A DNA stretch of 62,636 bases, counting the filler, from Hausera hauseri (taxonomy: Eukaryota): the NCBI GenBank assembly GCA_046269625.1. It is 12 parts of 12 records of this genome, joined end to end, with 100 filler letters (N's around TTAATTAATTAA, not from the genome) between each part and the next. Parts side by side here need not be neighbours in the genome. Positions count along the whole stretch, not along the records: positions 14,145 to 19,468 come from JBJURY010279396.1; positions 19,569 to 24,754 come from JBJURY010313608.1; positions 24,855 to 29,630 come from JBJURY010439471.1; positions 29,731 to 33,919 come from JBJURY010711548.1; positions 34,020 to 38,493 come from JBJURY010563450.1; positions 38,594 to 43,424 come from JBJURY010421142.1; 6 more parts are not named here. One strand, given 5' to 3'. Below are positions 7,667 to 56,592 of the stretch, one piece after another. Below the pieces are notes generated by a model that searched no databases, was not told where the DNA came from, and saw only the letters and a program-made list of their open reading frames with translations. Each line of letters begins with the position of its first letter. The stretch's first letter is position 1. The translations under genes were made by a program, and so were the position numbers.

Positions 7667-7827
7667 ATGGCCACGACTGCAGATGGCTGCGTTCAGTTCA
7701 CGCGGCACGCAGGCGACGTCCTGCTCAACTTCAACCGGCTCCGCAGCCGAAACCTCCTGACTGACGTCACCATTCAGGTGGACGGACAGCTTTTCTGCGC
7801 TCACAAGACGGTCCTGGTGGCTTGCAG
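7667..7827 (+). CDS. bcl6: BCL6-family BTB/POZ transcription repressor, first coding exon (teleost-like)
   Basis: [53 protein letters not shown] matches the BCL6 N-terminus; GT donor at 7828. Confidence 0.92.
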
Positions 7828-7909
7828 GTACATCAGACTGTTACTGTGACTCTGCTGCTCTGTTTTCATTGTTTTACTAACAACCTTTTTGGTTTCTGAC
7901 TCTCCACAG

Positions 7910-15759: not shown

Positions 15760-17620
15760 GTGCACTGTCACTTCTTTGTCGTCTTTGAGGATAATGACGT
15801 TATGGAAATGTAAACGAATTACTTTGTAAGGGCGAATTTACTGAGGTTGAAAACCACACGGCGTCCTATTCTTTAGCCATACGAACTTAGCAGTATATAA
15901 ATTGTCGGGTATGTAGCGTTTATTTCCGTGTAATAGTCTACAAAATGAGTCTTTGCTAATCACAACAAAGTGTCTCTGGGCCGCTTGTATGGTTTCGTCT
16001 GTAGGAATATTTTCCAGCTCAACCAGCTCGAATAATGGTCTGATAGAAGTACCAAATAATGCTTCTGCAGGTGAACAGCCTGTAGAAGTAGATGGTGTGT
16101 TCCGCCAGCCAAGCAGAACCTATGAAAAGAGTGTAGTCCAACTGCGATTGGACTAAGCCAGGATTTTGAGATACGCTTTCATCGTTCGGTGAAAGTGTTC
16201 GAGAAGGCCATTCGATTGGGGATAATATGGTGATGTTGGAATGTGGTTAATTCCAAATCGATTGACAAGAGCTTTAAACAGGTTGGATTCGAACTGTGGG
16301 CCTTGATCCGAAATGATGTGGCGAGATGATCCAAACCTGCTGATCCAATTGCGTATGAAAACGTCTGCCACTGTTTCTGTGTTGGTACTCCGAAGCGGGA
16401 CAGCCTCGGGCCATCGCGAGGAACGGTCCATTATTGTGAGGATGAAATAATGGCCGTTGTCTAAGGGTAGTGAGCTTACGAGGTCAATGTGAACAGATTC
16501 AAGACGAGACGTGCAGGGAAAATGATACAGTGGTGGCTTTAAGTGCTTAGTAACTTTGTATTTTTGGCATGCCACACACTGTATAACCCATGCCTGCACC
16601 TCACAGCGCATAGACGGCCATAGTACTTGGCGTTGTAAAAGTCGAAAAGTGGCCTTGGCACTAGTACGGCGAAACGAATGGATTTTGTTGAATGCTTCTT
16701 TTTGAAGCGATTCAGAAAGGATGACTTTAGGATTATTAGGATTGGAGGTGTCAAAGGCCACACCGTCGATGGTTTTGCATGATTTAAAAGATTTAAGGAT
16801 GTCAGGAGATGGCTGGTTTTCTAGAAGTTTGGATTGAGGGAAAATTGATGTAAAATCAATCGAGCTGACTGATCGGGACAAGAAGTCAGCTACTAAATTT
16901 TTGACTCTGTTTAAGTGCTTAATTTCAAAATCAAATGCGGATAAATACGATATTTGTCTCTCCTGACGTAAAGAAGGCGATTTCATGGTGAGAATTTGAA
17001 GCAAGGGTTTGTTGTCCGTTTGTGTTGTAAAAGTTTTGTGCGGTTAGCAGATGCTTGAAGTGTTTTACGGCAAGGATCATTGCAAGCAACTCTCTGTCAA
17101 AGGTGAAATATCTTTGCTCTTGTGCCGTGAATTTCCGAGAAAAGAATTCTAATGGCTCATTGGATCAATTTTTGACTTGATGGAGGACAGCACCTACAGC
17201 TGTTGTGGACGCATCCGTGGTTAAGAGTTCTGCATGGGGGTCAGGATACGCGAGGATTTACACGGTTTTTAGACTATCTTTGAGGTGATCGAAAGCGTTG
17301 GCTAGCTTAACGGTCCATTAAATACGCTGCTTTTTCTTGCCAGAGCTTAGTGATTCAGATGGAGCAGTTAGAGTGGAGCAGTGTGGAATATACTTATGAA
17401 TAAAGTGCAAGGTTCCGAGGAAAGAACGCATCTCTGTTGATGTACGTGGCAGCTGTATGTTTTTGAGCTGTGTGATGCGCTCTGACTGAGGTGAATGTCC
17501 GGAGGAGCTAATAACATGTCCTAGGAAGTTGTCCTTGTGTTGAAAAAAAGAGAATTTGGAGGAATTAATTTGCAAATTGTTTTGGTGCAAGCGCTGGGAA
17601 ATTAAACGTAAGTGCTTAGT
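15760..17620 (-). mobile_element. Degenerate Ty3/Gypsy pol fragment (RT end - RNase H - integrase)
   Basis: NFLGHVISSSG...RSFLG (17318-17836 ORF); TDASTTAVGAVL...FDRELLA (17050-17220); integrase ORF 16153-17004. Confidence 0.9.
16153..17004 (-). CDS. Gypsy RNase H C-terminus + integrase (HHCC-like and DDE core)
   Basis: NLVADFLSR, WPSMR...CVACQ, VHIDLV, DRSSRWPEAVPL, ISDQGPQFES, YYPQSNGLLEHFHRTMK. Confidence 0.9.
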   Translation of the reverse strand: MLQILTMKSPSLRQERQISYLSAFDFEIKHLNRVKNLVADFLSRSVSSIDFTSIFPQSKLLENQPSPDILKSFKSCKTIDGVAFDTSNPNNPKVILSESLQKEAFNKIHSFRRTSAKATFRLLQRQVLWPSMRCEVQAWVIQCVACQKYKVTKHLKPPLYHFPCTSRLESVHIDLVSSLPLDNGHYFILTIMDRSSRWPEAVPLRSTNTETVADVFIRNWISRFGSSRHIISDQGPQFESNLFKALVNRFGINHIPTSPYYPQSNGLLEHFHRTMKAYLKILA

Positions 17621-19683
17621 ATAGATCTGCTGTTGTATATAGGTATCGGTCGCAGCTCCTTTGATGTAAATAATATGGTTAAAGCATTCAAAAATTTTAA
17701 CTATGTTTTGTTGGTGCATTGAAATGTTACTTGTTAGATTTCTTTGAACCAACAATGTTTTATCATTATTTCGTAAATTCAGGGCTTTGAAATGTATTGC
17801 AAGCAACAATGTAAGTTTATGTTGACTGGTTTTCATTATATGATCAAAGAAAATTCACATAAAACCTTCTGATATATATTTTTGATAATTCAATCACAGT
17901 GTAAAAATTTATTATTAGATATTGTTTTCTTAAAACAAAGTTTCCAGCTGTGATCCACTTGTAATGGGTTTTCGTGTGCACGACCTGCACGCGGGATGTC
18001 TCAATCTGGCAAATTCATCGGAAATTCCCCTGGACAAAAATGATTTGTAAAACAGATCTTGTTTTGCTTTTAAACATCCTCCCTCCCTCTTTCTCCCTGG
18101 GGATTCTATTTCTCTGTAATAGTTCACAAAGTATGCAGACAAGTTTGCATCTGTTGTAAAAAAAAAAAAAAAAAAGAACGAGACAGTTTTGAAGAACCGC
18201 GAAGGTAGAACGACTGGAGCAAGTGTATAACAAAATGATAGTTTAATGTCATAGTGAATATAATCACTGTTTTATTTTAAAGAGAATATAATCCCTCTTT
18301 AGAAAAAAAAAAGGATCTTATGCGACAAACTACGAAATAGAATTATCGGCATCCCGAATAAATGTGTCGCCTTGAAAAAAGGCACGCTATTTTTTTTTTT
18401 TTATAGCGTGACAGAAATCGCAGATTGAATCATATCAGGAACATCTCTTATGGCCAGAAACCTAGGCTTACAAACATTTACGAGGGAAACCCAGGAAGAG
18501 AGGCTTTGGTGTTTGCATTTCAAATATTACACGATTCAAAACCTGAGTACAACTGTGATGGTGACAAACGATTTTTTTTTCCACTGGTGTAAATGGAGGA
18601 GACAACCTGTCCTGGTACCAGGGTAAGCTGCCATGAAAATGTGGTCCTGTTAAAAGGGGGCGATAAATTCCAATGAGAAAATTTCCCTAATAGTTAAAAA
18701 TCGAAAAAGGGGTACTAACGAGCGAAAGAAACTTTTTTATTGTAAAGGTAAAGAAAGGGGCTGCCATAAGGCAACGATACGGTCATGCAATATAACATAC
18801 AGGTAAACTAATACAGTACAAAAAATAGAATGTAAAAAGAGACATTAACAGCATGTCTGAAACGGGTGGTGATAAGATTTATCATTTACTGTGGTGGTGC
18901 CAAGACTCACAGTGTGTGCTGAAAAATATTTACTGGCGTATGGTGAGTAAGAAATAATAATAAGAAGAAACTATTTTCAAAGGGTTGAGAATTGGGCATG
19001 CAGGCCCGTATTACACTCTGCCCTTCGAAAGAGTGGTTAATGAAGATTGGTTAATGAAGAGTGGTTAAAAAAGAAAGAGTGGTTGGTGCTTCTAGACAAG
19101 TTCATGCTTAGCAATATGTCACGGACATACGTTCTGGATCATACTTGAGTGAGAGGAAATGAGAAAGTAGATAAGATGGCTAGAAATTATTTGCACACAG
19201 TACCGAGAAAGTAAACTGTGGTAGGAGGAGAGAGAAAGCATTGGATGAACATTATAGCGCTACAAGGTTGTGGGGTCGATTCCTACTAGTGATAATCGAG
19301 TCTTTTTCAGACCAATTGGTTCCACCAGTTTCAGAAACTGATAATACTGTTTAAAAAAGTAAACTTTCTTTTGATTCGGGGACATATTGTGTCTTCCTAA
19401 TCCCTTATGACAAAAATAAAGAGAAATTCTCTATTGTCCCACACGGTCTTTGCTTTTGTTGTTTATAANNNNNNNNNNNNNNNNNNNNNNNNNNNNNNNN
19501 NNNNNNNNNNNNTTAATTAATTAANNNNNNNNNNNNNNNNNNNNNNNNNNNNNNNNNNNNNNNNNNNNACAGTATTTATGACTGTCTCTGCAAATGTTTT
19601 TGTAATTGATAGATTTTTGGCATTATATTCTTTTTTATATTCTTTCTTTTGTTCACTCGAAATTTTGATTGCTTTATCCAAAG

Positions 19684-21830
19684 TTAAAACTTTTCTCTGT
19701 CCACTAAGTATTCGAGTTGAGTTTTCCTCATTACTATAATCGCATTTGTTTTAGTCTTTAATCTCGATAACGCGTCAGCATCGACATGTTTACTACAGGG
19801 CTTATATTGAAATTCAATGTTANNNNNNNNNNTCGTGAGATCTCTGATCCATCTGTTGAGTCTGCATGTTGGATTGTTTACCCATTCTTTCAAAGTCGTG
19901 ACGGCTTTATGATTGGTAACAATTATAATTTTCTGTCCGTAGACATAGGCGTTAAAATGTCGCAGCGCTTCTTTTACAGCCAATGTTTCTAATTCCATAA
20001 CTGAGTAATTTTTGTCGGCTTTCTTCAGTGATCGTCCATCATAAGCGATCGGGTGCTGCCGTTCTTCGTCATCTCTTTTCTGGGCTAATTCATATCCGAT
20101 ACCTTCTTTACTGGCGTCAGTTTTAATAATAAATGGAAACCTAAAATGAGGTTATTTTAAAAATAGTTCACTTTTAAAATTTTCTTCATTTCATCGAAAG
20201 CATTTTGTTCGTCCTTTGACCATTTACATTTAATTCCCTTTTTAGTAAGCGGTACAGAGATGCATTTATTTTTGAATTATCTGGCACGTATGTAGCGTAG
20301 TATCCACACAAACTTAACCAATTTCTCAACTCCTTTTTGGTTTTGTGGTTCCACATAGTCCGATATCTTGTTTAATAATGACTTATCCGGTTTCGATCCT
20401 CCTTCTCCAACTAAATGTACAAGTTAGGATACTGCATTTCGGACCCATTTATATTTTTTAGGATTTAACTTTAATCATGCTTGCTCTGATCTCTTGAGTG
20501 TATCTTTTAAATGTTCTTCCGTTCTTGATGCGATCAATGCGTCATCTAAATAGGCAAATGCATGATCAAGTTCCATTAACATTTTATTCATCATTCTTGT
20601 GCTGATCCAGTTGTAATTCCGAATGGCGTTATAATAAATTAGTATATACCATCGTTAATTTTAAACGCCGTTTTATAACGGTCATCTTCAATTTCTACTT
20701 GCCAATATCAGGATTGTAAGTTCAGAATGGTAAACCATTTTGCACCCGAGAGTCTGTCTAAAGCTTCCTTTACTGATGGAAATGGAAAAGAATCTTTCAT
20801 CAGTAGAGCATTCAGTGCCGTACATTCAATACAAAATCTATGTTTTGTAGAACCTTTCTATTTGACCGTAAGTATCGGCGAATACCAAGATCGGTAACTT
20901 AAACTAATTGTATATGCTTTTACCATTTGTTCAACTTTTGTTATTTAGTATTAGTGAATGTGGCTGTGGATACCACTTAGGTATCTTTTGGTCCTCGAGA
21001 TCAATCTCGTCGTTAGACCTAGAGTTTTTCTTTAGTGGGGTCGTTAATCTCAGAGCTTTAGCTGTACCAATATATTCTTCCTTCGAAATAATTTATTTAT
21101 AACGGCGCAGACGGTCATAAAAGCGACAATAGGATTCAGATGAAAACTTGTTCTTAACATGAGGTGGAAATTCAGTGCATTTATAAGGTTTTTCTTCTAT
21201 AGTTATTGATTACACTTTATATGTATGGGCTAAAATAGTATTAGAGTATAGTTTGGTCGGAATTGGCGCGACCTGTCTATACTCTTGTCAATGTGTTACT
21301 GAGTACAATGCTTGGATTTAATGTTTCTTTTGGTTCGAAATATACTGGCTGGTCATCATCTTGTCGAATCCGTACATAAATCAGCATTTCTGTTCTGGGT
21401 GGAATATTTTCACCTACTGGAATCCACACTTCTCCGGATTTTTTATCTTTTGTAGTTTTTACTCTTTTTAATGATCCAAGTTCCATTAATTTACCAGCAT
21501 GAAAATCTATTGCCACATTTGGTAATTGTCTTACCAAATCATATCCTAACACTACATCGTCCGTTAGTTGTTCCATTATTAATGAAATGATTATCCTATC
21601 ATATGTATTTCGGAATTCCATCTGTATTCACATATTGAGGTCTGTCCAAAAGCTCCAATAATTTCTGGATCTGCTGCTGGAGACGAGTATAGTTGTTTTC
21701 GTAGAACCTGTAGTATCGAGTCATATTTTATCAGTGATATTTCGGATCACATATATATTAGTGCACAGACTTCCAAATCTTCTATATTAATTTTAGCGAA
21801 GGGTCTGCATTCCATGATTGTACCATAAAA
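19684..21830 (-). pseudogene. Gypsy pol: aspartic protease, RT, RNase H (fragmented)
   Basis: RPFAKINIEDLEVCALI, DVVLGYDL, RFCIECTALN, PFGI, AFAYLDD, KTDASKEGIG, ELETLAVKEALRHF, HVDADALSR. Confidence 0.9.
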
Positions 21831-22479
21831 GATCGGTGCTACTTTAGGATGCTTAATTACTGATACTTTATATCCATTAATTCTACTTTTTGGTGTCGTA
21901 ACCGGTTGATGAATTAACTGCCTCAATTCACCATTCGGATATAGTTCATTATTTACACAATTGACAGTTCCTGTTTCTTGGCTTCTGATTATTGGTTGTG
22001 ATTCTTGGTTTCTGAAAGTTTGCATTTCGCGGTCTCTTGAAAACATTGATCGTATTTCATTAGTTCTGTGTTTTTGGCGAATACAATATTTTATAGTCGT
22101 CAAATGACTGGCATCCGAACGGAGCATATGTTTATTTTTCTTCACGCATCTTCCATAGTACACCGTAATGTTTCATTCCGTTGTACGGATCTTCAAAACT
22201 AAACGGTTTTCTATAGATGCACGCTTGATACGAACTCGTCGATCGTTTATCGCAATCTTCATATATCAGTTCAGATGGCGGTAATATCGGCAACCGTGGA
22301 TTTATGACGGAGTACTTTTTGTGTCTAATTAACCTGGAGATGGCGTCTCCTGTCTTAGGCTCTTCATTACCCGAATTGTTTTTTCGCTTTTTCTGGTTGA
22401 GGAAAAATGTAGGTTTCTTTCATCGTTCACATTTATGATAGTCAACATGACGTTGTGCATCAGTTATCCACCTGCTTTC

Positions 22480-24290
22480 ATCACAAGCCCTTAACAATTT
22501 ATCGAACGGTGTTATAATTGCAGTCAAGATTTTGCATGAAAATCCGGTAAACGTAAATATCTCGTATCAATTTATAACTGCTTGAATTACGGCTTTGATT
22601 AATTGTACTAAGAAATAGATCGCTAAAAATCCAGATGCTGTTTGTACGGAAATTATAAATCTCCAATTTTTGTGTATTTCGGTGGTTACTCGTTGATAAT
22701 TATTTGCACCAAGTAATGATTCCCATTTTGCTTGATAGCGAATATCGTCTACAATTGCAGACATGGCTCGATTTAGGTCGTGTGTTCGTTGACATGGAAA
22801 AGCGATAATCTGTCTAAAAGCTTCAACGTCCTTTGGTCTATAATTGCCCTTTGTTGGGGTATCCTGAAATTTATCATCCGTTATTCCTTTTACGATATTG
22901 GTTCCTGTTAGTTTGTTAGTGGCAACATTCAGGCCCCCATTCAGTAGACTTACCCAATCCGTTTCACCACATCTAAACATGGGTTCTCCTAAGCTCGATT
23001 TACATTCTTTTAAGATTGTTGGCTAAGTTGCTTTAGCTAACAAGGCCCTAGTAAGTGACATAGCTAATCAGGATGTATTCTGGTACAAAACTGGAAGTTC
23101 TTGTATACACCGTTTTTCTTCGACATTAATAGTTCATCTCTCTTTCCACATTCATAAGTTAACAGGACTTTGCTCGTGACTCGACCGAAAATTCCTTCTT
23201 TCATTTGAATTATTGGTGACACTAATTCAGTATTGGTACAGATTAAAGCCAGTTTCGTTCTCATGATTTCCATATCTAATTTAAATCGTACGTTATCATT
23301 TTGCGGTATAGTTCCGTTATTCCGACTTGCCCTTGTAGTAGAAATAATCGTTTCTGTTCTCCACGTTATCTTCGAATCGTACATCTTGTGTTTCTTACTT
23401 ATGTCCGTGCATTTATTTCGGTTTCCGCTACAAAAAATGCCTCGTAATTTGTCTCGTGCATTACTACTTCGCAAAGTGAGAGAATTTCTTGATCAATTTT
23501 AATCCATAAGGGTCAGAAATTAGTATAGTTGGTGTAGCGTTCCTCCACGTCTTCTCGTGTCCTTATGCTACTATCTATCTTGTTCACATATCGGTTGCCA
23601 GTCATATCATTGAACTCCAGTTCCTTAACTTTGATGAAATTACAATCTTTTCCAGACGGTGGTTCCCAGGTTATGGCTGAACTCTTAAAAGCCCAAGTAC
23701 CCTACTGTAAATGACATTTTTGGTTTTCGAGATATAGTTTGGTGACGCTATGACACATCACTTTCCTTGTTTGCATTTCAGTTTCATAGAAATATACAAC
23801 TACCACACCTCCTTCTTTCCTTCTTCCAGTGTCGTATTATACGCCACCACAATATCCGGTATGGATGTATTATTTTCCCGCTGCTAATTTAAATGATCTA
23901 ATTATTTTCCCTTGCTGCAGTTCGAGTTCCATATCGTCTTATTTTAATCTACCGGTTTCTGTAGCTTGACTACAGTGTTGTCTTTCCAAGCTCATTGGGA
24001 TCGGTGGGGTTGGATTATTGATGGATGTCCATACATCTGTCAACAATGCAAAACACTACAAGATCTACGTAACATACATTCTATTCCATCTAGCGAAATC
24101 ATTTCACGTTATTGATATAGTACGTAGCTTTTCTCTTTTGATTCCAATTTATGTGGGCTGTCATCTCCAGACGTTTCCAAATCTATCAACGAATATTTTA
24201 GCCAAGTTTAAGTTTGTCACAGTCGTATACCATGATAACTCCCATTTATTTTATCAACATCATCGGGGTTAGAAAGTTAATTAACCAACT
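22480..24290 (-). pseudogene. Chuvirus-like (class III-type) envelope glycoprotein, decayed
   Basis: Signal-like WLINFLTPMMLI then MVYDC; GIECMLRRSCSVLHC; GYCGGV; AITWEPPSGKDCNF; EGIFGRVTSKVLLTYEC; CLQELPVLYQN...TRAL...EPMFRCGETDW; DVEAFRQIIAFPCQR; TM GFLAIYFLVQLIKAVIQAVIN. Confidence 0.7.
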
Positions 24291-24854
24291 TTGTTCGTTT
24301 CCTCGGTTATGACCCGTCTAATTTCGTACCACATTCTCGAGTCTGCTAGAGGATGACTTATTTTGGTATTCTTCCATTTCAAATAGTTTAGTCCAGTTTA
24401 TTTCTCGAAGTAATTTTCTGGCGGCTTTCCCTGCTACGTTATTAGCTCTGTTAAATTAATTTTCTCGCGTTGGATTTGTTTTAATGTCCAAATACAGTAA
24501 TACCTTTGTTAATTATTCTGTTATTTTCTACCGTGATCTTCTCAGTCACTGTTCGATCCGTTAAAGTGTTTTTAAATAATCTGAAACGAGAATTTCTCAT
24601 TGTTCTGACTGCGTTATATATAGCTTTTTCTCTTTCATCTGGTACATCGTCACGGAGACTAGATTATTTCATGATACGCATTAAATTCTTCATGAGTTCG
24701 GTTAATTCTTCGTTATCCGTGTTGAAAGTAGGTACAACATTTGCTTTAGTTCTCNNNNNNNNNNNNNNNNNNNNNNNNNNNNNNNNNNNNNNNNNNNNTT
24801 AATTAATTAANNNNNNNNNNNNNNNNNNNNNNNNNNNNNNNNNNNNNNNNNNNN

Positions 24855-25624
24855 CATTTGGCTGCCAGTGTAGGTGATACAAGTGCGAGGTCGATGACAC
24901 TGTCAGAATCACCCGGTCTGCTCGCCAATCTCGTCGCCCTGCCATCATTGGTGCACACCAGGTCAGCTGTTACAAGGGCGTCTTCTAAGTCCTCGCCTTG
25001 CTTGTTAAGGGTGACATTTCCCCACTGCCTGCCTCTGGCATTGAAGTCCCCACAGAAGATTATGTTCTTTTCATCCCGTGCGAACAGACTTTGCCACATG
25101 CTGGTATCAACCTTACCATTGCATGCGTACACGTTAACAACCAGTAAGGACACTGGGTCTTCCACTCTGACAGCGTGGGTCTGCAAAGCTTCATTGTTCC
25201 AGCTGGACATGTCCACCTCCGAGGCCCTCAAACTATCACGTACGAAGATGGCCTGTCCACGATGTTGTCTGTTAAAATATGCCTGGAAGCCCGCCACTCT
25301 TACTGTCTTATCATTGAGGTTGGTTTCTTGTAGACAGACGATGTCGGAGCCGTATACAAGTTTGTCAAGAATAGGTCTCCGTTGACTCACACTAGCGATG
25401 TTCCAATACATTATGCGAATATTTTTACGGCCTATCCTTTCACATTTCGTTTTTCTCCTGCTGCAGCCCGCTCGCTTCCCTCTCTGTCTCCCCTTACCTC
25501 GAGTTCCTCTGAATTTCTTGTTAGTTGTTTTGGTTGACATAGTTTCGTTCCCACGCTGACGGGATCCTAGCAACGCGGATCGCTGCGAGTCAGCACAAGC
25601 ACTGTAGCGACTGCGCGGATCCAT
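24855..25624 (-). CDS. Apurinic-like endonuclease (APE) N-terminus of a non-LTR retrotransposon, truncated by contig end
   Basis: IMYWNI, DIVCLQET, VNVYA, IFCGDFNARGRQWG, SVIDLALVSP. Confidence 0.92.
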
Positions 25625-25758
25625 TCCACGCTAACGACTGATACACCTCAGCCACACAGCCCCTCGGCACGTGGAAAAACCTTGGGCTTGGTAGATAACC
25701 GTTTCAAATCGTTTGCTGGATGGAAAAACCGACCTCTATCTGCGTAAACAGAAAAGAA

Positions 25759-38373: not shown

Positions 38374-38913
38374 TACAACAATTAGAACGAAACGTAAATG
38401 AATGATTCGGTAAACTGGGCAAAAAGATGAAAACTATGCACCCATATGGCCGAATAATCATATACTTACCGTCATTGTTTATACTATGATGCTNNNNNNN
38501 NNNNNNNNNNNNNNNNNNNNNNNNNNNNNNNNNNNNNTTAATTAATTAANNNNNNNNNNNNNNNNNNNNNNNNNNNNNNNNNNNNNNNNNNNNGGATCGT
38601 TGACTAGCAGTCAGTAGTCGGCTTATTTTTATGTTTCCGCTGGTCATTGCCTCTACCATTAACTTAAATCGGCCTTCCACGGTCGGTGGTAGATGACCTT
38701 TTTTTCTTTGACCTTGATTTCCATTTGTCCCATCACAGTTGGGTGGGTCTCTATCTCTCTCATTCCGGCTATGTGCGTTACTGGTATGTTTAATTTTTAT
38801 CATTCTTTCTACTTGATACCCCACTAAGACGTATCCGTAGAGACACTATGCTACTTCCTCTTAAACTAATTTGGAATCCTTTTTGTGGATTAATTGTTTT
38901 CTTTTAATCCCGG

Positions 38914-39189
38914 TCACTCCGCATATGTTTCTTGTACTTTGCTTCTTGGGTTAATGATTTTCGGATAGAATTCGGCCCCGTTTTCTTCTCGTATGGATAT
39001 TTCAATTGGGATATAATTTCCTTCTTCTCCTGCTCCATAATTTACTGCGGCAATCCTGAGATTCCTGTCATAGGTTACCAATCTAAATGAGTGTATATGT
39101 GCGTCCTGTTCTTCAGTGAGTCTTTGTTTAAACTCTAAGGGCGTCAATAAAGCGGCTATTGCTTCCTCTTCGGTTATTTCAACCATCAT
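38914..39189 (-). CDS. Unknown accessory ORF fragment
   Basis: 91-aa ORF, co-oriented with the element. Confidence 0.35.
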   Translation of the reverse strand: MMVEITEEEAIAALLTPLEFKQRLTEEQDAHIHSFRLVTYDRNLRIAAVNYGAGEEGNYIPIEISIREENGAEFYPKIINPRSKVQETYAE

Positions 39190-39282
39190 TTTTACAGGTA
39201 AGGTAGCTACTCGAAATTTTTGCTCGTAATTGTGGAAATTTCTACTGTTAAATACAAATGTGCTAAACCGGCTTTGTCTTCC

Positions 39283-39624
39283 TTAAAATGAATCCCATTT
39301 TTGGTCTTTCAGCCGATAATAGATTTCCCCGTCTTCTAAGTGTACATATATTTTCTGTTCCTTATCCATTCGGTGTTGGGTGATCTGTTTCAAAGGGTAT
39401 GCTCTGGCATACTTGTCCTCTCTCCAGGCATATAAATATATAGCTCTGGCCTTTTCAGTTGTTCCTTTTAAATTGTTTGGTATACCGTCAACTTTTTTGT
39501 ACTGGATGAAGTTTTGTCCTTGTAATTCTGTGTTGATTTGCCTACAAATGGCTTTGGAATTTGGGATCCGGACGGTTACGTACTGTTGCAGAACTTCGTC
39601 GATGCTAAGTCGACTCGTGTTCAT
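39283..39624 (-). CDS. Unknown accessory ORF of Gypsy element (probably continues via frameshifts into 38914-39189)
   Basis: 113-aa ORF preceded by a splice acceptor; no motif recognised. Confidence 0.45.
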   Translation of the reverse strand: MNTSRLSIDEVLQQYVTVRIPNSKAICRQINTELQGQNFIQYKKVDGIPNNLKGTTEKARAIYLYAWREDKYARAYPLKQITQHRMDKEQKIYVHLEDGEIYYRLKDQKWDSF

Positions 39625-39743
39625 TTCGATTCGCTTACTTACCAGTCTGAAAAGAAAACATAAATGTTAATCTTAAAATAAAGTATGGCCTTAAACCAAA
39701 ACAAATTCTTTGTTTGATAACAGAATAACCTGACCTGTAATTG

Positions 39744-41150
39744 TCAGATTATTTTATCATATGGGTCTACAGGGTTTTCCAATTCCCTTAGTTCCCATTC
39801 TGAGTTTTTATGACGCTTAGAATAACAGTTTTTGGTGACTAATCGAAAAATCGCAATTAGTATAATGCGAACAAATGTTGGCAGTACCGTGATAGATACG
39901 ATTGGTAGTGTAGTTAGTCCCATCGGTACTTGTGTGGTGACCAGAGTTGTGATCCGCTCATCTATATCCTCATATGTATGAGATTCTGTGCGAATTTCAT
40001 CTAAAGTTTGCAATGTAATGGTCTGATTTTGCTTATTCTCCGCACATATCTGTACTATATATTCGGCTTGTGGTTTTAATAAATTGCATTCTGTTCGATA
40101 TTTTTAAATAATTTCACTACTTGATTATTATACGTTGCCCGACAACTTATATATATATATTGTAATTTTGTTTCTCTTCCACGAAGAACACAATCTTAGA
40201 TCGATATGCCGAATATTTAATGGGGATACTTCCTAATTCTCTTTTAGGCACATTGGCCGATGTAATGATTGACGTAATGGTACTAATTTGAGTAGTTGGC
40301 CTCCTGGTGGTCGTCGTTACTAAAATTTCCCAATTTCTATTTTCTGGATAGTAAGTTCTCAATTGTACACTTGGTTTATTCGGCTGTACTTCATATAAGT
40401 CAAATCTTATTCTAAACTCTCGGTTTAGGGGTATTTTACAGCATGGTTTTTGCATGCCTGCTCGAATAGAACAATATTCTATCTTCGGGGTCGGTCCAAC
40501 TGTTGCTTCAAACGTGATACTAATTTCCTTACTGAATGTTAATCCTGTTCTAGCGTCTGCTTGAATGCACTGTTTGTCCTTAATCACAGTGATTCTCTGA
40601 ATATTTTCGTCTAGTATTCTTATCTCTGGGTCAGTGGATCGTAAGATTTCATTCAGTTTTACTCCTTGATGTCTGTTCCATGCAGGAATGACTAATTGCA
40701 AATGTGGTTTCACTTCAACATAAACTTCAGTTGAGTCTGGCAAGTATAGACGATAGGTGAGGTTATAAGTACGTCCAAAGTCTATATCGCAACACTGCGC
40801 ATTTTCTCCAGGTTCAAAATCGCAATTTTTCGTTCCTCTTGTGGTTGTGTCAAGTAAGACAATTTGAAATCTTCCGAAATCGTGATGCGGTTTCCAAGCT
40901 TTAAATCCAACACATACGGAGTTTGGCGAATAGTAATGAATTGTCATTGATTGCAGTAATTTAGTGTCCTCTTGTTTTTGAACTTCTGCTGTTGGCTTCT
41001 TTTCCGTCTTGGTAGTTTCCGATTTCGATCCACTCTTCCGAATTCCGTATGTCTCCTAACAATGATTCATCGTACCACCATTAGGCTTGTGTTCTCGGGA
41101 GGTAGGAGGCAATCAACGATAATACTAAGACTATCTGAACGTATGATATT
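39744..41150 (-). pseudogene. Putative type I membrane protein: signal-like peptide, 2-3 FN3-like domains, Thr-rich linker, TM helix, short tail
   Basis: SYVQIVLVLSLIASYLPRTQA; internal repeat NCDFEPGENAQCCDIDFGRTYNLTYRLY / YCSIRAGMQKPCCKIPLNREFRIRFDLY; ECNLLKPQAEYIVQICAEN (FN3 signature); LPIVSITVLPTFVRIILIAIF. Confidence 0.6.
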
Positions 41151-41236
41151 GGTCTAGTAACTATCGATGAAGTTTTTACTTCACGTTGACGTAGATTATA
41201 ACGTTTGCTGGGTCGTATTTCTGTCGTGATAAATCT

Positions 41237-43424
41237 CTATATTGACACAACTTCTTTTCCATTTTTGTTAATATATACTGTAGTTGGCGTAGCCTTTGTA
41301 ACCTCGTACGGTCCTCTACCTATACGAGTCAATTTTAGTGAGGTGCCTTTTTTGGCTACTGGGTAATGCACATAAACCCAATTTCCTCGTTCTATATCAT
41401 GCGGTTTCGCTTCCTTATCATATTGCTTTTTAAATTGTTCTTGATATTCTTGTGATAGTTCTTTGGCAATTTCCCAACACTTTTGTAATCGCGTTTGTAT
41501 CACTTCTCCGAAATTCTGTTCTAAATCTTCGGAATTAACTGTGCCAGGTGTCATTACTAAATCCGTGGGCAACACGGCTTCACGTCCGTACATCATAAAA
41601 AATGGCGTAAACCCTGTCACTGGATGTGGCGTGGTATTAATTGCAAATTGCGTTCCTTCCAAAAATTCGTCCCAATCTTTTTGGTCCTTAGACATACTGT
41701 AGACAGTATACGTATGACGGTAGCATTCATCCGTTCGACCATTCCGTTACATTGAGGATGATATGCAGTAGTTGTTAATCTCTCGATTTCGAATATCTTA
41801 GTGATTTTCTCGAATAATTCACTAATAAAATTTCTTCCTCTATGCGTTAGTATTTGGTCTGGGGGTCCGTATCGACAAATAATTCTTACAACGGCTTCTG
41901 CCAAGGTTTCGGCTTTCTGATCTATCAATGCTATCAATTCGACGAAATGAGTTAATCGATCAATACACGTTAAGATGTACTTATTGTTTTTGTGGGTCGT
42001 AGGGAGGGGTCCTACAATATCCATCGACATAGCTTGCATGGACCTATCGGGCACATTGATTGGTTTTAATTCAGCCACGTAGTTTTTCGTCTTTTTCTGT
42101 TTAGTTGCACACACTTCACAAGCATTTACCCAATTTTTCACATCGATATGAATGCTAGGCCAGAAGTATTTATTCATTATTCTTTCTAACGTCTTCCAGG
42201 ACATGTGTCCGGCTAAGTATGAATCATGTTCTGACATCAGTACTTCGGTTCGTAAACTCCGGAATAACTATCAGCTTCTTTCCCTTTCGTTCGTAATATA
42301 AAATGTCTCCTTCATTTCCGCCGTTTAAGACGCAGTATTTGTGTCCGTATCTGTGTAAATGTTTCTTTAATTGTCGCCCGTTTGGTATAATGTCTTTTTT
42401 AGCAAATTCTATAATCAGCTGGATAACTTTATCCTTCCTGTTCTGTTGAAATCTTGATTGCTCTATCTATTGTTAACACGCGTTGGCGGTCTATTATTTC
42501 TTCAAGTTGACTTTTCTTCATTACTGTGATTGCGCTTATTTTAGTCTTAAGTCTCGATAGTGCATCGGCGTCTACGTGTTTGTTCCCTGGCTTATACTGA
42601 AACTCAATGTTATATCTGGAGATTTCTTCGATCCATCTATTTAGTCTGCAGGTCGGGTTATTGGCTCGACCCTTTAAGGTCGTAACGGCCTTGTGGTCGG
42701 TGACAATTATAATTTTCTGCCCGTAAACATAAAGACTAAAATGTCGAAGTGCTTCTTTTACTGCTAGAGTTTATAATTCGGTAACAATAATTTTTCTCAG
42801 CCTTCTTCAAAGAACGTCCTCCATAAGCAATTGGATGCTCGAATTCTTGATCCTCTCTTTTCTGTGCTAATTCATATCCAATACCTTCCTTACTGGCATC
42901 TGTCTTAATTATGAATGGTAAACTTAAATCTGGGTATTACAAAACAGGTTCACTCGTTAATATCTTCTTCATTTCAAAGGCTTTCTGCTCGACGTCTGTC
43001 CATTTCCATTTAATCCCTTTTTTAAGCAGACAACATAGAGGCGCATTAATCTTTGAGTTATCTGGTACGTAGGTTGCGTAATATCCCCAGAGTCCTAGCC
43101 AGTGTCTCAACTCTTTCTGATTTTGTGGTTCCATGCAATCTGATATTTTGTTTAATAGTGATTTATCCGGTTTTGATCCTCCGTCTCCAACTATGTGACC
43201 CAAGTAGGATACTGCATTTTAAGCCCATTTGCATTTCTTCGGGTTTAACTTCAATCCGGCTTGTTCCAATCTCATCAGTGTGTGTTCAATATCCTTTAAG
43301 TGTTCTTCTTCTGTTCTCGATATTATCATCACATCGTCTAAATATTCAAAAGCATGATCCAATCCCATTAACATTTTGTTCATCATTCTCGTAAATATGG
43401 CTGGTCCGGTAGTAATACCGAACG
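41237..43424 (-). pseudogene. Gypsy pol (RT C-terminal half, RNase H, integrase)
   Basis: YLDD, LGHIVG, TDASKEGIG, HVDADALSR, HDSYLAGH...CEVC, MDIVGPLP, HPQCNGMVERMN, GPYEV. Confidence 0.93.
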
Positions 43425-45539
43425 NNNNNNNNNNNNNNNNNNNNNNNNNNNNNNNNNNNNNNNNNNNNTTAATTAATTAANNNNNNNNNNNNNNNNNNNN
43501 NNNNNNNNNNNNNNNNNNNNNNNNTTAAATTTTATTGCTCATTAGCATGTGTTACAGAATGAACTATGGAAAAGCCAAATATACAGTGTAATTAATAAAA
43601 TCTAGGAAAGCCATATCTTTAATAGGTTATTTAGGAAAATAGATAATCAGTAATTATACCTTCAATATGGAAATTAGACTGCGATGACTCTAATTGAACG
43701 TCCATAAAAATCATCGGAAAAATTGATATACTTGTCAAAAAACAACAGAAAACCTGAGATCAGAACAAAATCGGAAAGCAAATAAAATAAAATAAAGAAC
43801 ATCACAATGCCTACTTATAATCAGACTATAAGTCGAACCAAAGTTAACAGACAGATAAAATCGACAATTGTTATTACCTCGAAAAATTGTTATCGTGATC
43901 TTTCGTTATTTCTTTAACTGAATTAAGAGAAATTGTTATTAAGTAGGCAGAGTGAATTATTGTGTAGATATCAAAATTTCGCAGAAAAGTTACTGGAGAA
44001 AACTTGGCTCAGGATTGTTCTTTGAACGATATTCCTGTATTCAATTAACAATTGCCGATATGCTATATTGATCCGTATAAAACGACTCTATACGTCATAC
44101 GCAGACTGTATTGTATTTAAATATATTGTGCATAATAAATTTCTTTTAGTTTCCCACCGCCCCTTAAAGCAGGTTCGACTTCATTAGGCATAAAATTTTA
44201 TTTAACAATAAGTAGAAAATGGGAAGTCTGCACCACCACCCTCGGGGTGTGTGGGAATCGATGAAATCAATATAGCACATGTGCCAATCGATAGTGCACA
44301 TGGAGCACTATCGATCGGTAGGGTGCTAGGCGAAGGGGATGTTAGGTACCGTTTCTAAGCACATTTTTGCACATTTCACAAATCGATAGCTGCATATTGC
44401 ACAGTTCGTCGAATCGATCGGGACAAAGGATTAATTGATAGTGCACATCAAGCCGAATCTTCATATACACTGTGCAGGTGCGCAGCACATGTACAAGTGT
44501 GCAAAAATCAATAATATCGGTTTCGATATACGATGCATTATGTGAATGTGCAATTAGAATTTAAATCGATCGAGTCGATTTCGAATAATATCGATCCAAA
44601 TTGCAACTGGTACAGGCTTTCCAGTTTTAGGTCCCAAGGAGTCAAAATTCGACAAATGTTTAAAAGGGAACAGATAGGAAGTGCCACATTGTAACCCGGG
44701 TCCTCCATCTCAAATTTCCGAAATTCGATGGACAATTCGAATAAATATCGATTTTCACCAAATAGTATCGAATATCTTGACACCCATAAATTTTTTGAGA
44801 AATTTGAGAGCGCCAGTCGATTCCCCATGCACCTTTCAGATCTACCGCACATGTGCAAATGTGATTTAATCAATAATAAAGGTTTTCCGATAAAACCTAT
44901 AAAGTTGATTTTAGCACACAAGCTAGTGGAAGTCGAAAAATGTAAAAGCGTACACACAGAAACTAACATGTGCTGTATCCGATTATGACATCAAATATTC
45001 GAAAACTCGAATACAAGTCGAACTTTTCGAATAATTGATTTTCTATTCGAATAGAAGCAAAAATCGAAAAATCTGAAGGCGGAGAAGGATAGAAACCCAG
45101 ATATGTAGAATTCGAATATGACATCAGATATTCGAAAAGAGGCTGAAATAAAAAAGCCGATTTTTCGATTGAATTCGAATATTCAAATAGTACCATCGGA
45201 TTCCTCATGTTCGAAAACCTTTGTAGACCAAACATAGGGTGTACAAAATATTTAAAAGTGTCTCTAAATGAATAAAACATTGAAAATTTCGATACTATTC
45301 GGTCAAGCATGCATTATTGGAACAATCTGATAACTCCAATCAATTGTATTAATACCTATTTAGCGCCAAAGTGCATTTAATTTATTTTATGCATTAAAAC
45401 AAAGTGTTATAGAATGTTCAAAAATTCAAAATTTAAAAATCCATAAATGAGGCAGTATGCGTTGATTTGGCTATGTTTCATTATTTACAAAATCACTTAC
45501 AAGAATAGTGAGATTTTTATTTGTGCTCCTCAAATAATT

Positions 45540-48500
45540 GGTTGATTTTTAGATGTGAAATCTATACAAACAGTGCTTGGCGCAAATCAACGAGCTCAAA
45601 AATTGCCACAACATTATGCAGAAATACTTCAGCCATCTATACAACAGGGCTGAGTATTATATATGCCCTACATGTGAGGTAGTGTGCAAGACCAAATATG
45701 AAGACTTTTACATGCCCATAAACAACACCTGATTCCCTTCTCTAAGTCGAAAAAACAAGTATTCAACACAACTATGACAATAATGACTTCAATGTCTAAG
45801 CAAAATCAAAGATGCAGTTCATACTTGTATTGCACATGCGCAATACACAACCCTAAGAACCGTCATAATACTATGAGGAGCTATTATGGATATAAATTCA
45901 ATAGGATCCTCTATTATATATCCCCAAAATGTGAGACTGTATCATTTGAGTCACTTCGGATCAAAGTCAAGGAAAGCCATTTTTAATGAGCAACATAAAC
46001 TTGATGAACCTGCTTCGCAACATGATGATTCGCAGTATTCTGCCGAGCCTAGATGAAGTCGCGAAATTTGAAAGCGTCAACAACATCTCCATCAACATCT
46101 TTGGATTGGAGGAGGAAAAATTTTATCCCCTACATGTGTTCAAGGAGGAATTGGATGATAATATGGATCTGCTCCTGCTAGATTATGGAGAAACGAGGCA
46201 TTTCATCCGGATCAAGAATTTTGAGCGCATTGTAGGATCCCAAATATCCAGTCATAAGTCAAGGCTGGAAATCTGCAAATGATGTCTATCCCATTTCAGT
46301 GGTGACATGGCCTCGGCGAAGCTCAAGGAGCATAAGACCTATTGCAATACGAACTATTGCATCCGAGCAGAATTACCCAAGGAGGATTACCTGGAATTCA
46401 AAGAGTTTGAAAACGTTGAAGATGCCGATTGTCATATATTGTGACTTTAAAACTATCCTCAGCTCAGTTCACAGCTGCACTCCGAATCTGCAGAAAAGCA
46501 GATCGACAGCTTACCAATATCATTAGCTGTCATCATACTGCATGTATGCATTAGTCATGACAAGGAGCCACCCCTATACCGGGGTTTAGATATAGCGCTT
46601 CATTTCAAGAAGCGCTTGGAGGAAATTGCATATAAAATCGAAAATATGCATCATAAATGTAAGAATACTAAGAAAATGTGTCAGGAGGAGAAATGTGAAT
46701 GTCAAAATGCAACACAGTGTTACCTGTGTGAAAAAGCCTTCACATTACACAATCACAAAGTCCGAGATCATTGCCATACAACCGGCGTGTATCGAGGCGC
46801 AGCGTGCAATAATTGCAATCTACGTTGCAAAACATGTACATATGTGCCTGTAGTGTTCCATAATCTCAGTGGCTATGATTCCCATTTCATTGTTCAGGAA
46901 CTGAACAGCATTGAAGGAAACATTGATGTGAGTCCTAATAGTGAGGAAAAATACATCACCTTTACCAAGCATGTTGGGAAAATCAGGCTTCGCTTCGTAG
47001 ACAGTTTCCGTTTCATATCGTCTTCACTTGACAGTTTAGTGAAGAACCTCCTTGCAGAAGAACTTATGGAGACGAAGCGACTCTTCACTACTACATTTGA
47101 CCTTGTTAAAAGGAAAGGTGTGTTTCCCTATGACTATATAACATCACGGGAAACATTGGATGAGACCCCACTGCCGGCCAAGAAGGACTTTTACAATATC
47201 CGCTCAGACAGCGATATCAGTGATATGCGCAGAACGTTTGGCATGCATTTCAATGCCAAACAGAGACATATACTCAAGATGGACGTGCTGCTGCTGATGG
47301 ATGTCTTTGGGAGCTTCAGGGATGGTACGATGAAGAACCATGCATTGGATCCAGCTCATATTTTTAAGGGTACAGGAAAGAGTTTGGCAGCTAGGCTGCG
47401 CTATACATGTGTCCGGCTGCAGATCATAAAGGATTACGACATGATCCTCATGACTGAGAAAGGCATTAGAAGGGAATATGTCAGGACATTCACCGGTATA
47501 GCGAGGCCAACAACAAGTATATGTCCCAGTATAATCCATACAGGAAATCCTCGTATATATCATACCTGGATGCCAACAACATATATGGTTGTACAGTGAG
47601 CGCCCCATTGCCATATGATAACTTCAAATGGGTCGAGCATCCTGAAAATATCCCTATACTGGACCTGGATCCCACTGGAGATACGGAATACATACTCGAG
47701 GTGAATATGGAATATCCGGTTTCCATCCATGCAGGAAATCAACAACTGCCTTTCGTTTCTGGGTGCAAGCCTCCGCCTCATGGAAAGCATAGAAAGCTGC
47801 TCTTCCATCTGGAAAGTAGGGAAAGGTATATAGTCCACTACAGAAATTTCCAGCAAGGTGTCAGGAATGGATTCCGCATTACGGAGATCCATCTGGACCT
47901 CCAGTTTATCCAGTCCAACTGGCTGCAGCCGTACATAGATCTTAATATGAAACTGAGGACAAATGCCAAGAACGACTTTGAGAAGTTTTAGTTCAAGATG
48001 TACAACAACAGAGTTTTTGACAAGACCATGGAAAATATCCACAAAAGGATCAACATCGAACTGGTCTGTGAGTGGAAGCGGGCAAAAAAGCTCAATGCCA
48101 AGCCTAACTTTTACAGCAGCACCATATATGCGGAGAACATGGTCAGCATCCATATGCTGAAAACATCGCTTGAGTTAAACAAGCCCATATATGTGGGTAT
48201 GGCAATACTGGGCCTGTCAAATACCCTGGTGTACAAATTCCACTATGACATCATGGTCTCACATTCAAGTCCATACAGCTGACGTACATGGACACTAATA
48301 GTTTCATCTATCAAATCCATACTGAGGACATTTATGAGGACTTTGCTAAGTTAGCACAGCATATGGATACATCGGACTATCCGAAGAAGCATACCAACGA
48401 GAAAGTCCTTGTGAAATTCAAAGACGAGGTGAATTTGGCAATCATCTCGAGATTTGTGGCTCTTAGGTCCAAAATTACGATTGATGTATGTAGTCAAGTA

Positions 48501-48743
48501 AAGAAGAGAGCTAAAGGGGTTCAAAAAGCGACCTTAGCCAAGAAGAATGGCTTCAATGACTATATGCAAGTTCTGCATAAGGCGACTCATATCATATCAG
48601 AGATGCGAAGGATCAAGTCTAGGGCTCACAACATTGAGACAGTAACATTACAGAAGAAAATCTTAGATCGGATGGATAACAAAAGACAAATCCTGGATGA
48701 TGGAATAAGCACATTACCTCACGGGCATGTTGCATTAATGTAA
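45540..48743 (+). pseudogene. Polinton/Maverick-type protein-primed DNA polymerase B with N-terminal endonuclease VII-like Zn motif, decayed
   Basis: KFESVNNISINIFG; VIYCDF; VRDHCHTTGVYRGAACNNCNL; FHNLSGYDSHF; RFVDSFRF; RKGVFPYDY; YLDANNIYG; NKPIYVGMAILGLS; YMDTNS; KRAKGV. Confidence 0.93.
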
Positions 48744-49700
48744 ATATCTTTGCTACGAGATGCTGTATTTTTTGTATTAATAAATCTTATAAAAATATCG
48801 TGATGCCTTCTTGATAAAGTAATGTGGTATATAGGATAAGGCAAAGCAAATAAATAAATAAATTAGAAATTCAAATAAAAAATCAATGCAGAGAAAAATG
48901 ACAAAAACATGCCCAGTTTGTTTGAGTAGATGGTAGAAAAGACAATGCATATGGCTACTTGCAACACATACATTTTTTGTGGGACGTCTTCAGAAATGGT
49001 TACGTCGTAAAATTTCATGCCAAATATGAAGGATATTGCGATTTTGTCCTTAGTAGATGGAAGTGAGCACACTGGATCAGCCCCGCCCCCGCGGAGAAAA
49101 AATTGATGTGGTTCGCGGATGAGTCATGGGGTGGAGATGGGATATTTTCGACACACACTCACAAAGTGGATACACACAAGTAAGTGTACTGCATGGCTTT
49201 TAGACACGTGTAAAAATTTGAATTTCGCGCCAAACATTTTTTGTTTAAATTTTGGTGGTCGGGTATAAATATATATGTGTGCAAATAGCATGGCATTGTT
49301 TCAACAAATAGTACGACAAATGGTATGTTTTTAATTCTGCTTTCCGAAATTACTTTTATACTTAGAATTACAAAATAGATTTATAAGCTGATATTAAACG
49401 GCAAACAAATGAAATATGCAATGGGGAAATTTATTGTGTCCAGTTTTTAAATAAACTGGAGCAACAACACTTTCTACCAAACGAAGACTATGTAGAACTT
49501 GTTGTTGGATCGATATTAATGACAAACATTAAAGAGGAATATAGAAAAAGACAGAAAAATGTTTTACTTGTATATAGTATTCTTACTGGTGCATTTGTAA
49601 NNNNNNNNNNNNNNNNNNNNNNNNNNNNNNNNNNNNNNNNNNNNTTAATTAATTAANNNNNNNNNNNNNNNNNNNNNNNNNNNNNNNNNNNNNNNNNNNN

Positions 49701-52700: not shown

Positions 52701-53875
52701 CTCTTAACCCGCATTAAGGCCACAATGCTTTTGTTCTCCGGGTTGGAATAGGGAAACCATAATATGTACACCATGCTTTGTTCTCGGGGTGGCAACAGTG
52801 AAATCATAAATACACAACAATGTATTTGTTCTCGGGGTGGGAATAGTGAAACCATAATAAGGCCACAATGCTTTTGTTCTCGGTGTGGGAACTGCGAAAC
52901 CATAAAAAGGCAACAATGCTTTTGTTCTCGGGGTTGCAATAGGGAAAGCAAAAAGAGTCCACAATGCTTTACTATTGGGGTGGGAATAGTGAAAGTATAG
53001 TAAGATTACAATGTTTTTGTTCCCGGGGTGGGAATAGTGAAACGAAAGTAAGGCCACACTGCCTTTGTTCTCGGGATGGGAATAGTGAAACCATAATAAC
53101 GCCACAATTCTTTTGTTCTCGAGGTGGGAACTCTGAAACTACAATAAGGCAACAATTTCTTTGTTCTCTGAGTGATTATAGTGAAACGATACTAAGGCCA
53201 CTATGCCTTTGTTCTCGAAATTTTAATAGTGAAAACATAAAAGGGCCACCATGCTTTTGTTCTCGGGGTGGGTATAGTGAAACCATAATAAGGCCACAAT
53301 GCTTTTGTTCTAGGGGTTGGAACTGTGAAACCATAATAAGGCAACAATGCTTTTTTTCTCGGCGTGGGAAATGTGAAACCATAATTAGGCGGCAATGCTT
53401 TGTTCTCGGTGTTGGAATAGTGAAAGCATAAAAAGACTACAATATTTTTTTTCTCGGGGTGGGAATAGTGAAACGAAAATAAGGCCACTCTGCCTTTCTT
53501 CACGGGGTTGGAATGGGGAAACCATAATGAGTCCACAATTTCTTTGTTCTCGGTGTGGGATCTGTGAAACCATAAAAAGGCAACAATGCTTTTGTTCTCG
53601 GGGTTGCAATAGGGAAACCAAAATGAGGCCACAATGCTTTACTCTCGGGGTGGAAATAGTGAAAGTATAGTAAGATTACAATATTTTTGTTCCCGGGGTG
53701 GAAATAGTGAAACGAAAATAAGGCCACACTGCCTTTGTTCTCGGGATGGGAATAGTGAAACCATAATAAGCCCACAATGCCTTTGTTCTCTGGGTTGAAA
53801 TAGGGAAACCATAATATGTACACCATGCTTTGTTCTCGGGGTGGCAACAGTGAAATCATAAATACACAACAATGT
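49701..53875. repeat. 48-bp tandem satellite, about 87 diverged monomers
   Basis: Consensus GGGGTGGGAATAGTGAAACCATAATAAGGCCACAATGCTTTTGTTCTC; period measured 50703 to 50751. Confidence 0.97.
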
Positions 53876-56056: not shown

Positions 56057-56592
56057 ATGGCCAAAAGAAAATCGGAAAGTGATGGTAGTAAACCAAGAAT
56101 TTTTTATTTGTTAAAATTTCATATAGAAATCATTCTGTCAGCAAAATTGAGCAGAATTGATGAAGTTTTATCAAGGGGAAATAATGCCCTCATGATGCTG
56201 AATGAGGTTGGTATCAAAGGACTAAAATGGAACATGGAACAGATCAAAAATTCTGTCCCACAAAAATTCCGAGCTACATGTCAATTTACCGAACCATTTG
56301 CTGGACGTGACAATGTTATCCAAACTGGAACGATGTTTTTTTCCGATGGATTAACTAAAGCGGCTTGTAAGCATGAAATTGCCGAACAGATTATCGGTCG
56401 AATTGCTGGGAAATCGTCAAATGGTGTTGTGAATAACATTCCAGTGGAAAAATCGGCTTTATCATCGGATGCTCCCAAATTAGAGGAATCTGTTAGAATT
56501 TCAAACGAGAAGGCAAAAGATTCGGAATATAAATTTATTCTACAAGAAGATGGATATTCGTGTTATGTGGATTTTCGTAGAGTCGTTGTCAA
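56057..56592 (+). CDS. ADAR: ADAR-like gene, 5' exons with dsRNA-binding domain (probable 57-nt intron 56085-56141)
   Basis: MAKRKSESD; NALMMLNE...FRATCQF...F.SDGLTKAACKHEIAEQII dsRBD pattern; exon 3' end approximate. Confidence 0.65.

Follow-up and report, generated by a model that had tools for sequence, protein, structure and literature searches.

The question raised by this stretch of DNA from Hausera hauseri (assembly GCA_046269625.1; 62,636 nucleotides (nt) in all, hereafter the window) is whether two of its contigs preserve parts of one kind of Gypsy retrotransposon, with a viral-type fusogen gene (env) before pol and the gene of a second surface protein after it. The window comprises 12 separate contigs joined by N44-TTAATTAATTAA-N44 spacers, and the two contigs in question, K4 (19569-24754) and K8 (38594-43424), are both read on the minus strand, with three contigs unrelated to either lying between them. 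Judged by their sequences, the two contigs are dead copies, each from one of a pair of sister Ty3/Gypsy lineages, or sister families. The env gene directly upstream of pol is observed in K4 and the gene for an FN3-domain transmembrane (TM) protein directly downstream of integrase in K8, and we consider it reasonably probable that the common ancestor of the two lineages carried both.

Relationship of the two contigs

Both contigs are decayed, with numerous stops and frame changes in translation, and both end within the element. Neither K4 nor K8 contains an internal repeat longer than 25 nt, no long terminal repeat (LTR) was recognised in either, no polypurine tract was recognised at the 3' end of K8, and pieces of the two contigs gave no Pfam match to gag. 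The Ty3/Gypsy pol order of protease (PR), reverse transcriptase (RT), RNase H (RH) and integrase (IN) is nevertheless present, with RT-RH-IN in K8 and RT-RH in K4 recognised by Pfam, and PR by eye only. A gap of 10 Ns interrupts the RNase H of K4 (19823-19832), and therefore the final 254 nt of that contig may derive from another copy; K8 is free of such gaps.

The two contigs overlap in the C-terminal part of RT and in RNase H, where the homology proposed in the first-pass annotation is evident at both levels: 74.0% DNA identity over 1001 alignment columns (blastn, 19650-20623 versus 42439-43422, E 1e-177) and 223 identical residues in 290 protein columns (76.9%). All five of the motifs quoted in that annotation are found in both contigs on the minus strand. 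Self-repeats aside, this is the sole DNA match between contigs of the window at E 1e-5. Among 117 database proteins compared (the best 120 of 1207 matches, less three left out for short alignment), the closest pol region reached 43% identity to K4 or K8. The RT phylogeny, in which a placement of the two contigs in different lineages would have counted against the first-pass interpretation, instead joined them as sisters with SH-like support of 100 on a stem of 0.87 (121 rows); the tree was built with FastTree only, and the deeper placement of the pair is flagged for long-branch effects.

The assignment of K4 and K8 to one Gypsy family did not hold. Copies of a transposable element are conventionally placed in one family at 80% DNA identity, and these two fall below that level with their divergence concentrated at third codon positions. 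Identity at codon positions 1, 2 and 3 was 0.85, 0.89 and 0.54, and over 245 gap-free codons the differing positions numbered 36, 28 and 114, respectively (chi-square p 3e-17). Synonymous divergence (dS) was 1.75 and nonsynonymous divergence (dN) 0.13, giving a dN/dS of 0.074 (239-245 codons). Since decay after insertion strikes all codon positions equally, neutral decay can explain no more than about 11% of the difference in DNA (28 of the 245 second positions differ), and the codon pattern indicates that the remaining divergence arose while both lineages were active and under purifying selection. Third-position divergence, the dS and the low dN/dS therefore argue for two lineages that split while active and not for one family. 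Furthermore, since up to about 11% of the difference may be decay, the proteins of the active ancestors would have been closer to one another than 77%.

Genes on either side of pol

The fusogen gene predicted before pol in K4 was confirmed, with a match to PF24664 (Monjiviricetes_fusion) at E 2e-17 over approximately 23121-22474, and at E 1.5e-13 on a sub-piece (Table 1). This gB/chuvirus-type env contains numerous stops and several frame changes, has a TM segment that by hydropathy begins near 22629, and lies about 0.6 kb before PR, a position that K8 ends short of. The pieces of its N-terminal half gave no Pfam match, and its extent on that side follows a by-eye likeness to the Schmidtea C1a env sequences (six rows) that PMC13524379 lists in its supplement 2. 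A comparison of the env region with PDB sequences gave nothing below E 0.9, and a Pfam scan of the approximately 450 nt upstream of env found no significant match to gag or any other domain. In the stretch between env and RT (21220..22420) there are segments that we take, by eye, to be an aspartic protease and a dUTPase-like spacer, for which a Pfam scan gave no support. The RVT_1 matches of K4 (E 3e-4 and 1.7e-4, in two frames) are under the curated cut-off.

The FN3/TM gene that the first-pass annotation had placed after pol is present in K8 directly behind integrase, and has three FN3-like domains, not one. It encodes, in order, a signal peptide, two FN3-like domains, a Thr-rich stalk, a third FN3-like domain, a TM segment (39902-39846) and a short tail with a YxxI motif. 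The signal-peptide-like segment shares its frame with the integrase C-terminus, with one stop between them and no preceding Met. A HMMER search with a 302-amino acid (aa) piece of the K8 protein against 1.84 billion representatives returned two proteins, P0121 (E 1e-48, 35% identity) and P0122 (E 2e-10, 64%), both unnamed singletons from ENA with source contigs of 4,939 nt and 16,242 nt. P0121, at 479 aa, is intact; it aligns with K8 collinearly and without introns (E 8e-63), in three pieces and three frames: 41161-41036 (61%), 41055-40150 (33%) and 40094-39750 (31%). All eight Cys residues of the 302-aa piece align with Cys in P0121, and the K8 protein, P0121 and P0122 all end in the YxxI tail. 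Hydropathy gave one strong peak each for P0121, P0122 and the K8 piece, consistent with a single TM helix; over the signal segment the peak was weaker in K8 (1.83) and below threshold in P0121, the signal peptide being otherwise recognised by eye. The conservation of Cys residues, signal peptide and tail in homologues at 35% and 64% suggests, at the level of sequence, a long-lived gene under selection.

The post-integrase gene of K8 is predicted to encode a type I membrane protein with three FN3-fold domains. Structure prediction for P0121 and P0122 used alignments of only four rows, and the P0121 model has an overall pLDDT of 47 (low confidence), within which two beta-sandwiches stand at 55-73. 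These resemble tandem FN3 proteins, among them cytokine receptors, fibronectin and tissue factor; Foldseek gave 54 matches with E no greater than 0.001, and the best Z was 8.5-8.9. Domain 1 gave Z 8.5 with a root-mean-square deviation (rmsd) of 2.9 over 87 residues at pLDDT of about 65, and domain 2 was weaker (pLDDT 55-61). Domain 3, taken from the P0122 model, is seven-stranded at pLDDT 80-86 and matches 6msv with a TM-score of 0.74 and rmsd 2.1; its structural match reached Z 9.0, with rmsd 2.7 over 82 residues. The Pfam fn3 family was found on the K8 piece at E 0.12 only. ESM Atlas scores of 0.77-0.79 for the K8 open reading frame (ORF) and 0.83-0.88 for P0121 fell mostly to fn3 clusters with recognition below threshold, and serve as leads only.

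The signal-peptide region 41161-41036 (minus strand) is much more alike between K8 and P0121 than the ectodomain, at 61% against 31-33%, and may conceal a processing site or a cis-acting RNA element.

The ORFs proposed behind this gene are likewise there. Neither the larger of them nor the short frames that follow it showed a TM segment by hydropathy or a significant Pfam match; no homologue, Atlas or fold search was made with the larger. Two public DNA runs contain K8-like sequence, X1 (0.32 of words), which may come from the source itself or from its species, and X2 (0.09). From these, 14,637 and 1,012 contigs, respectively, aligned to K8 at 80% likeness, covering it without a break in 30 of 30 bins in each run. 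At the places listed, 38-68 X1 contigs lay over the 3' part of the FN3 gene and 41-50 over two places in the accessory region (50 at 39032, in the larger ORF), and their differences from K8 were mainly transitions. With tens of different contigs over them, the 3' genes are therefore multicopy and part of a repeat, not a single host flank. In both runs pol had a higher summed depth than the 3' genes, though depth cannot rank genes. No RNA run was listed, a result that is uninformative on expression.

Table 1. Features of contigs K8 and K4, with positions counted along the window
Contig	Feature	Coordinates	Strand	Basis
K8	RT C-terminal part and RNase H, common with K4	42439..43424	-	RVT_1 E 7e-16, RT_RNaseH E 6e-11, blastn
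K8	Integrase, broken: zinc finger, core, C-terminal part	41200..42261	-	PF17921 E 2e-14, PF00665 E 3e-11; C-terminal part by eye
K8	Broken type I membrane protein gene (FN3-TM)	39744..41161	-	P0121 mapping, homologue folds
K8	Accessory ORF, ~236 codons, one internal stop	38914..39624	-	Open frame; multicopy in run X1
K8	Short open frames to the end of K8	38594..38845	-	Reading frames; covered by contigs of both runs
K4	Coding-like stretch upstream of fusogen, cut by contig end	24300..24754	-	Translation
K4	Broken gB/chuvirus-type (class III) fusion glycoprotein gene, ~620 codons	22420..24300	-	PF24664 and hydropathy
K4	Linker (~200 codons), then presumed degenerate protease and dUTPase-like spacer	21220..22420	-	Translation
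K4	Reverse transcriptase, broken; YLDD at 20552-20541	20442..20857	-	RVT_1, motif
K4	RNase H; contig stops before integrase	19690..20208	-	PF17917 E 2e-26, PF17919 E 8e-24

The proposed composite element and its alternatives

We propose that full-length elements of both lineages likely share the layout gag, env, PR, RT, RH, IN, the membrane protein with three FN3 domains, and accessory ORFs. The support for such a composite is the sister relationship of the two pol genes, at 76.9% against at most 43% for the database proteins. In errantiviruses env is reported to follow pol and to recombine rarely (PMC13524379), and since env therefore tends to stay with its pol, a fusogen is likely in the K8 lineage; the FN3-TM gene, given its divergence, possibly predates the K4/K8 split. 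Of the length of more than 9 kb first suggested, K4 and K8 merged at their shared region account for 8,962 nt, and whatever exceeds this is extrapolation, as neither gag nor LTRs were identified.

Published elements with the GAG-ENV-POL order hint that the space after pol leaves room for 3' genes. On the assumption that the table coordinates of PMC13524379 include the 3-kb flanks given in its methods, six of the 10 bryozoan rows have 1.1-2.2 kb between pol and LTR (the other four have no listed LTR), and nine nematode rows have 0.2-2.1 kb between the pol stop and the 3' LTR, the LTR entry being missing in six of the 15 rows seen. An LTR is listed in none of the six Schmidtea rows. Between the end of pol and the 3' LTR, the paper annotates nothing in these bryozoan and nematode elements.

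If the composite holds, the element would be transcribed from its 5' LTR to give gag, env and pol, and the env and FN3 proteins would each use a signal sequence of their own to enter the secretory pathway, either cut out of the polyprotein by signal peptidase or translated from spliced RNA. The YxxI tail would sort the FN3 protein to the membrane from which particles bud. Entry would be mediated by the class III fusogen, and beside it the FN3 protein, raised on its Thr-rich stalk, would most likely serve for adhesion or attachment, whether on particles or on producer cells. Given the composite, we tentatively place adhesion or attachment to the target cell ahead of other roles for the modelled protein, with confidence somewhat short of even; a role as decoy receptor follows close behind, as the predicted FN3 folds cannot discriminate between the two. 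In its fullest form, drawn by analogy with herpesviruses, the proposal describes a Gypsy clade in which two genes share the work of entry: one for a gB-type fusogen ahead of pol, the other for a captured attachment protein with three FN3 domains, translated as a C-terminal extension of pol and followed by accessory genes. In this form it is speculative and unlikely to be correct in all its parts.

A number of observations weigh against this proposal. No contig, protein or locus examined joins both modules. In locus searches with the RNase H alignment, none of 26 pattern matches in viral contigs and none of 597 in metagenome contigs was confirmed; with the FN3 alignment the outcome was none of 595 and none of 44, and with the env piece none of 17 in viral contigs. 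Two weak searches among long proteins likewise gave nothing, with 0 of 827 candidates of 950-3024 aa matching the K4 env region and 0 of 1535 candidates of 530-2000 aa matching the K8 FN3 ORF. The dS of 1.75 represents ample time for gain or loss of a module, and in rotifer elements the extra ORF3s are family-specific, in the part of that account available (PMC5408684). P0121 and P0122 may lie outside retroelements. The gB-type errantiviruses are described without a partner protein in the available parts of PMC13524379, and since missing LTR entries are common in its nematode rows too (6 of 15), the hint from the LTRs is weak. The FN3 fold itself is non-specific for function: at the top of the matches, fibronectin, receptor tyrosine kinases, tissue factor and cytokine receptors are level.

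Several of these points would also be expected if the two modules were alternatives, such that the K4 lineage was an ordinary GAG-ENV-POL errantivirus and the K8 lineage had lost or never had the fusogen and had captured instead its FN3-TM gene together with the accessory ORFs, which might serve in spreading from cell to cell or in modulating the host. The age of the split, the family-specific ORF3 gains of rotifer elements (PMC5408684) and the lack of a joint record among the locus and long-protein searches all favour this, as do insect elements without env that are described as spreading with a small TM protein (sORF2). The tendency of env to remain with its pol lineage (PMC13524379) and the deep divergence of the FN3 gene (35%), which suggests an old gene, speak against it. 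Furthermore, neither K4 nor K8 extends to the position of the other's module, which means that no absence has been observed. We regard alternative modules as unlikely, though well short of negligible. A further alternative is a chimeric K8, in which nested insertion or misassembly brought this pol together with an FN3-TM gene and 3' ORFs from a different repeat or from a family of host genes. Short-read contigs tend to collapse repeats, the assembly is in fragments, and the junction of integrase and signal peptide is seen in K8 alone, being bridged by none of the 16 Logan pieces listed (of approximately 15,770; the longest listed is below 400 nt). The junction is nevertheless supported by the common strand, by the shared frame of the signal peptide and integrase C-terminus and by a base composition uniform over pol, the FN3 gene and the accessory region (A 37-39%). 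Together with the unbroken coverage in all 30 bins of both runs, the absence of N gaps from K8 and the intron-free collinearity with P0121, this makes a chimera highly improbable.

The remaining alternative accepts the composite, as our favoured reading does, and differs from it in function alone. The FN3 protein would here be no entry factor and would instead be a captured, host receptor-like decoy or a modulator of superinfection or immunity on the host cell, one of several accessory cargoes as in Burro elements. Such a role is in keeping with the presence of tissue factor and of class II cytokine receptors among the top fold matches, with the short tail devoid of a signalling domain, and with the many host-modulating domains that Burro elements bear (PMC6431247). 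Plain adhesion FN3 domains, however, match as well as the receptor types do, and viral surface glycoproteins too typically have a Thr-rich stalk and a YxxI tail, which counts against a decoy or modulator. We find this alternative doubtful and retain the composite element with an attachment protein as the preferred reading.

Neighbouring contigs and comparison with known systems

The other contigs of the window hold a varied set of sequences. Two further and unrelated Gypsy elements lie in K12 (58896-62636, plus strand), which has gag and from which RNase H appears by eye to be largely missing, and in K3 (16153-17854, minus strand); as possible parts of the K4/K8 element they were rejected, with RT identities of 37% and 27%, respectively, and positions elsewhere in the tree. 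Maverick/Polinton-like sequences occupy K9 (43525-49600), with a type B polymerase and endonuclease VII, and K7 (34020-38493), with integrase- and capsid-like ORFs by eye. An uninterrupted 665-aa LINE RT ORF, RTE-like by eye, is found in K6 (29733-31730, plus strand), an AP endonuclease ORF in K5 (24857-25630, minus strand), and K10 (49701-53875) is entirely a degenerate tandem array of approximately 48 nt, in which both strands hold long open frames. K11 carries an ADAR-type editase fragment (57286-57900, plus strand; PF02137, E 3e-12) and, upstream of it, a possible double-stranded RNA-binding-like ORF (55952-56623) that had no Pfam match. K1 bears a non-LTR-like element with a Ulp1 protease, and an N-terminal BTB piece (7664-7830, plus strand) whose best solved-structure matches are to vertebrate BCL6 (E ~6e-18). 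This vertebrate-like exon amid invertebrate-looking contigs may reflect a mixed sample, a chimera or a transfer.

The closest published systems are the errantiviruses of Platyhelminthes, Bryozoa and Nematoda in which an HSV/gB-type env stands in the order GAG-ENV-POL (Chary & Hayashi, eLife 2026, PMC13524379). In K4, as in these, the PR of a Ty3/Gypsy pol is directly preceded by a gB-type, chuvirus-like env, and its env motifs resemble by eye, in a likeness that was not computed, the Schmidtea C1a rows of that paper. Unlike them, K8 has an FN3-TM gene after integrase and accessory ORFs, neither of which is described there (the words fibronectin and accessory do not occur in its main text); the authors state that other ORF arrangements were outside their search. 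Gag and LTRs were not seen in K4 or K8. The giant planarian Gypsy elements Burro/GYPSM1 carry an env, with matches to mononegavirus glycoproteins, in frame between gag and pol (PMC6431247), and resemble K4 and K8 in this position of env before pol, in a dUTPase-like segment between PR and RT and in accessory ORFs. They reach 30 kb with BIR, BCL2, MATH and ankyrin cargo, none of which was matched in the 450 nt upstream of the K4 env; the multi-kb polyprotein region between gag and env, where BIR, BCL2 and MATH would be expected, lies past the end of K4, and in contrast to K8 an FN3-TM gene goes unmentioned in the available account of them. Glycoproteins derived from Jingchuvirales in arthropod Gypsy and BEL/Pao elements (PMC10084718, PMC7642597) place the same fusogen Pfam family as in K4 beside an LTR retrotransposon pol; the accessible parts of both reports mention no second surface protein. 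The LTR elements of bdelloid rotifers resemble K8 in having extra genes behind pol, some with TM domains (PMC5408684), and differ in that their ORF3 is a single slot filled by F-type env, GDSL, DEDDy or small TM ORFs, the word fibronectin being absent from the main text of that paper. A comparison with the CERV of Cer1 was set aside, as from the available text it concerns a nuclear protein.

A gB-type env before pol is thus already published, and a conserved, multicopy FN3-TM gene after the integrase of a Gypsy element was not found in the literature searched, whose coverage mostly excludes subscription papers. If this gene and the fusogen do share one element, that retrotransposon would have two surface proteins, and the gene would offer a handle on the choice or modulation of target cells by gB-type errantiviruses; if the modules are alternatives, K4 and K8 would provide a close natural comparison of two transmission strategies. 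In herpesvirus-type entry, the fusogen gB acts with separate receptor-binding proteins. Among the listed fold matches there is no homology to gD or gH/gL, with nothing beyond weak matches of low TM-score in that direction. The resemblance, if the composite holds, would be an analogy only, in which a class III fusogen is paired with a separate type I membrane protein.

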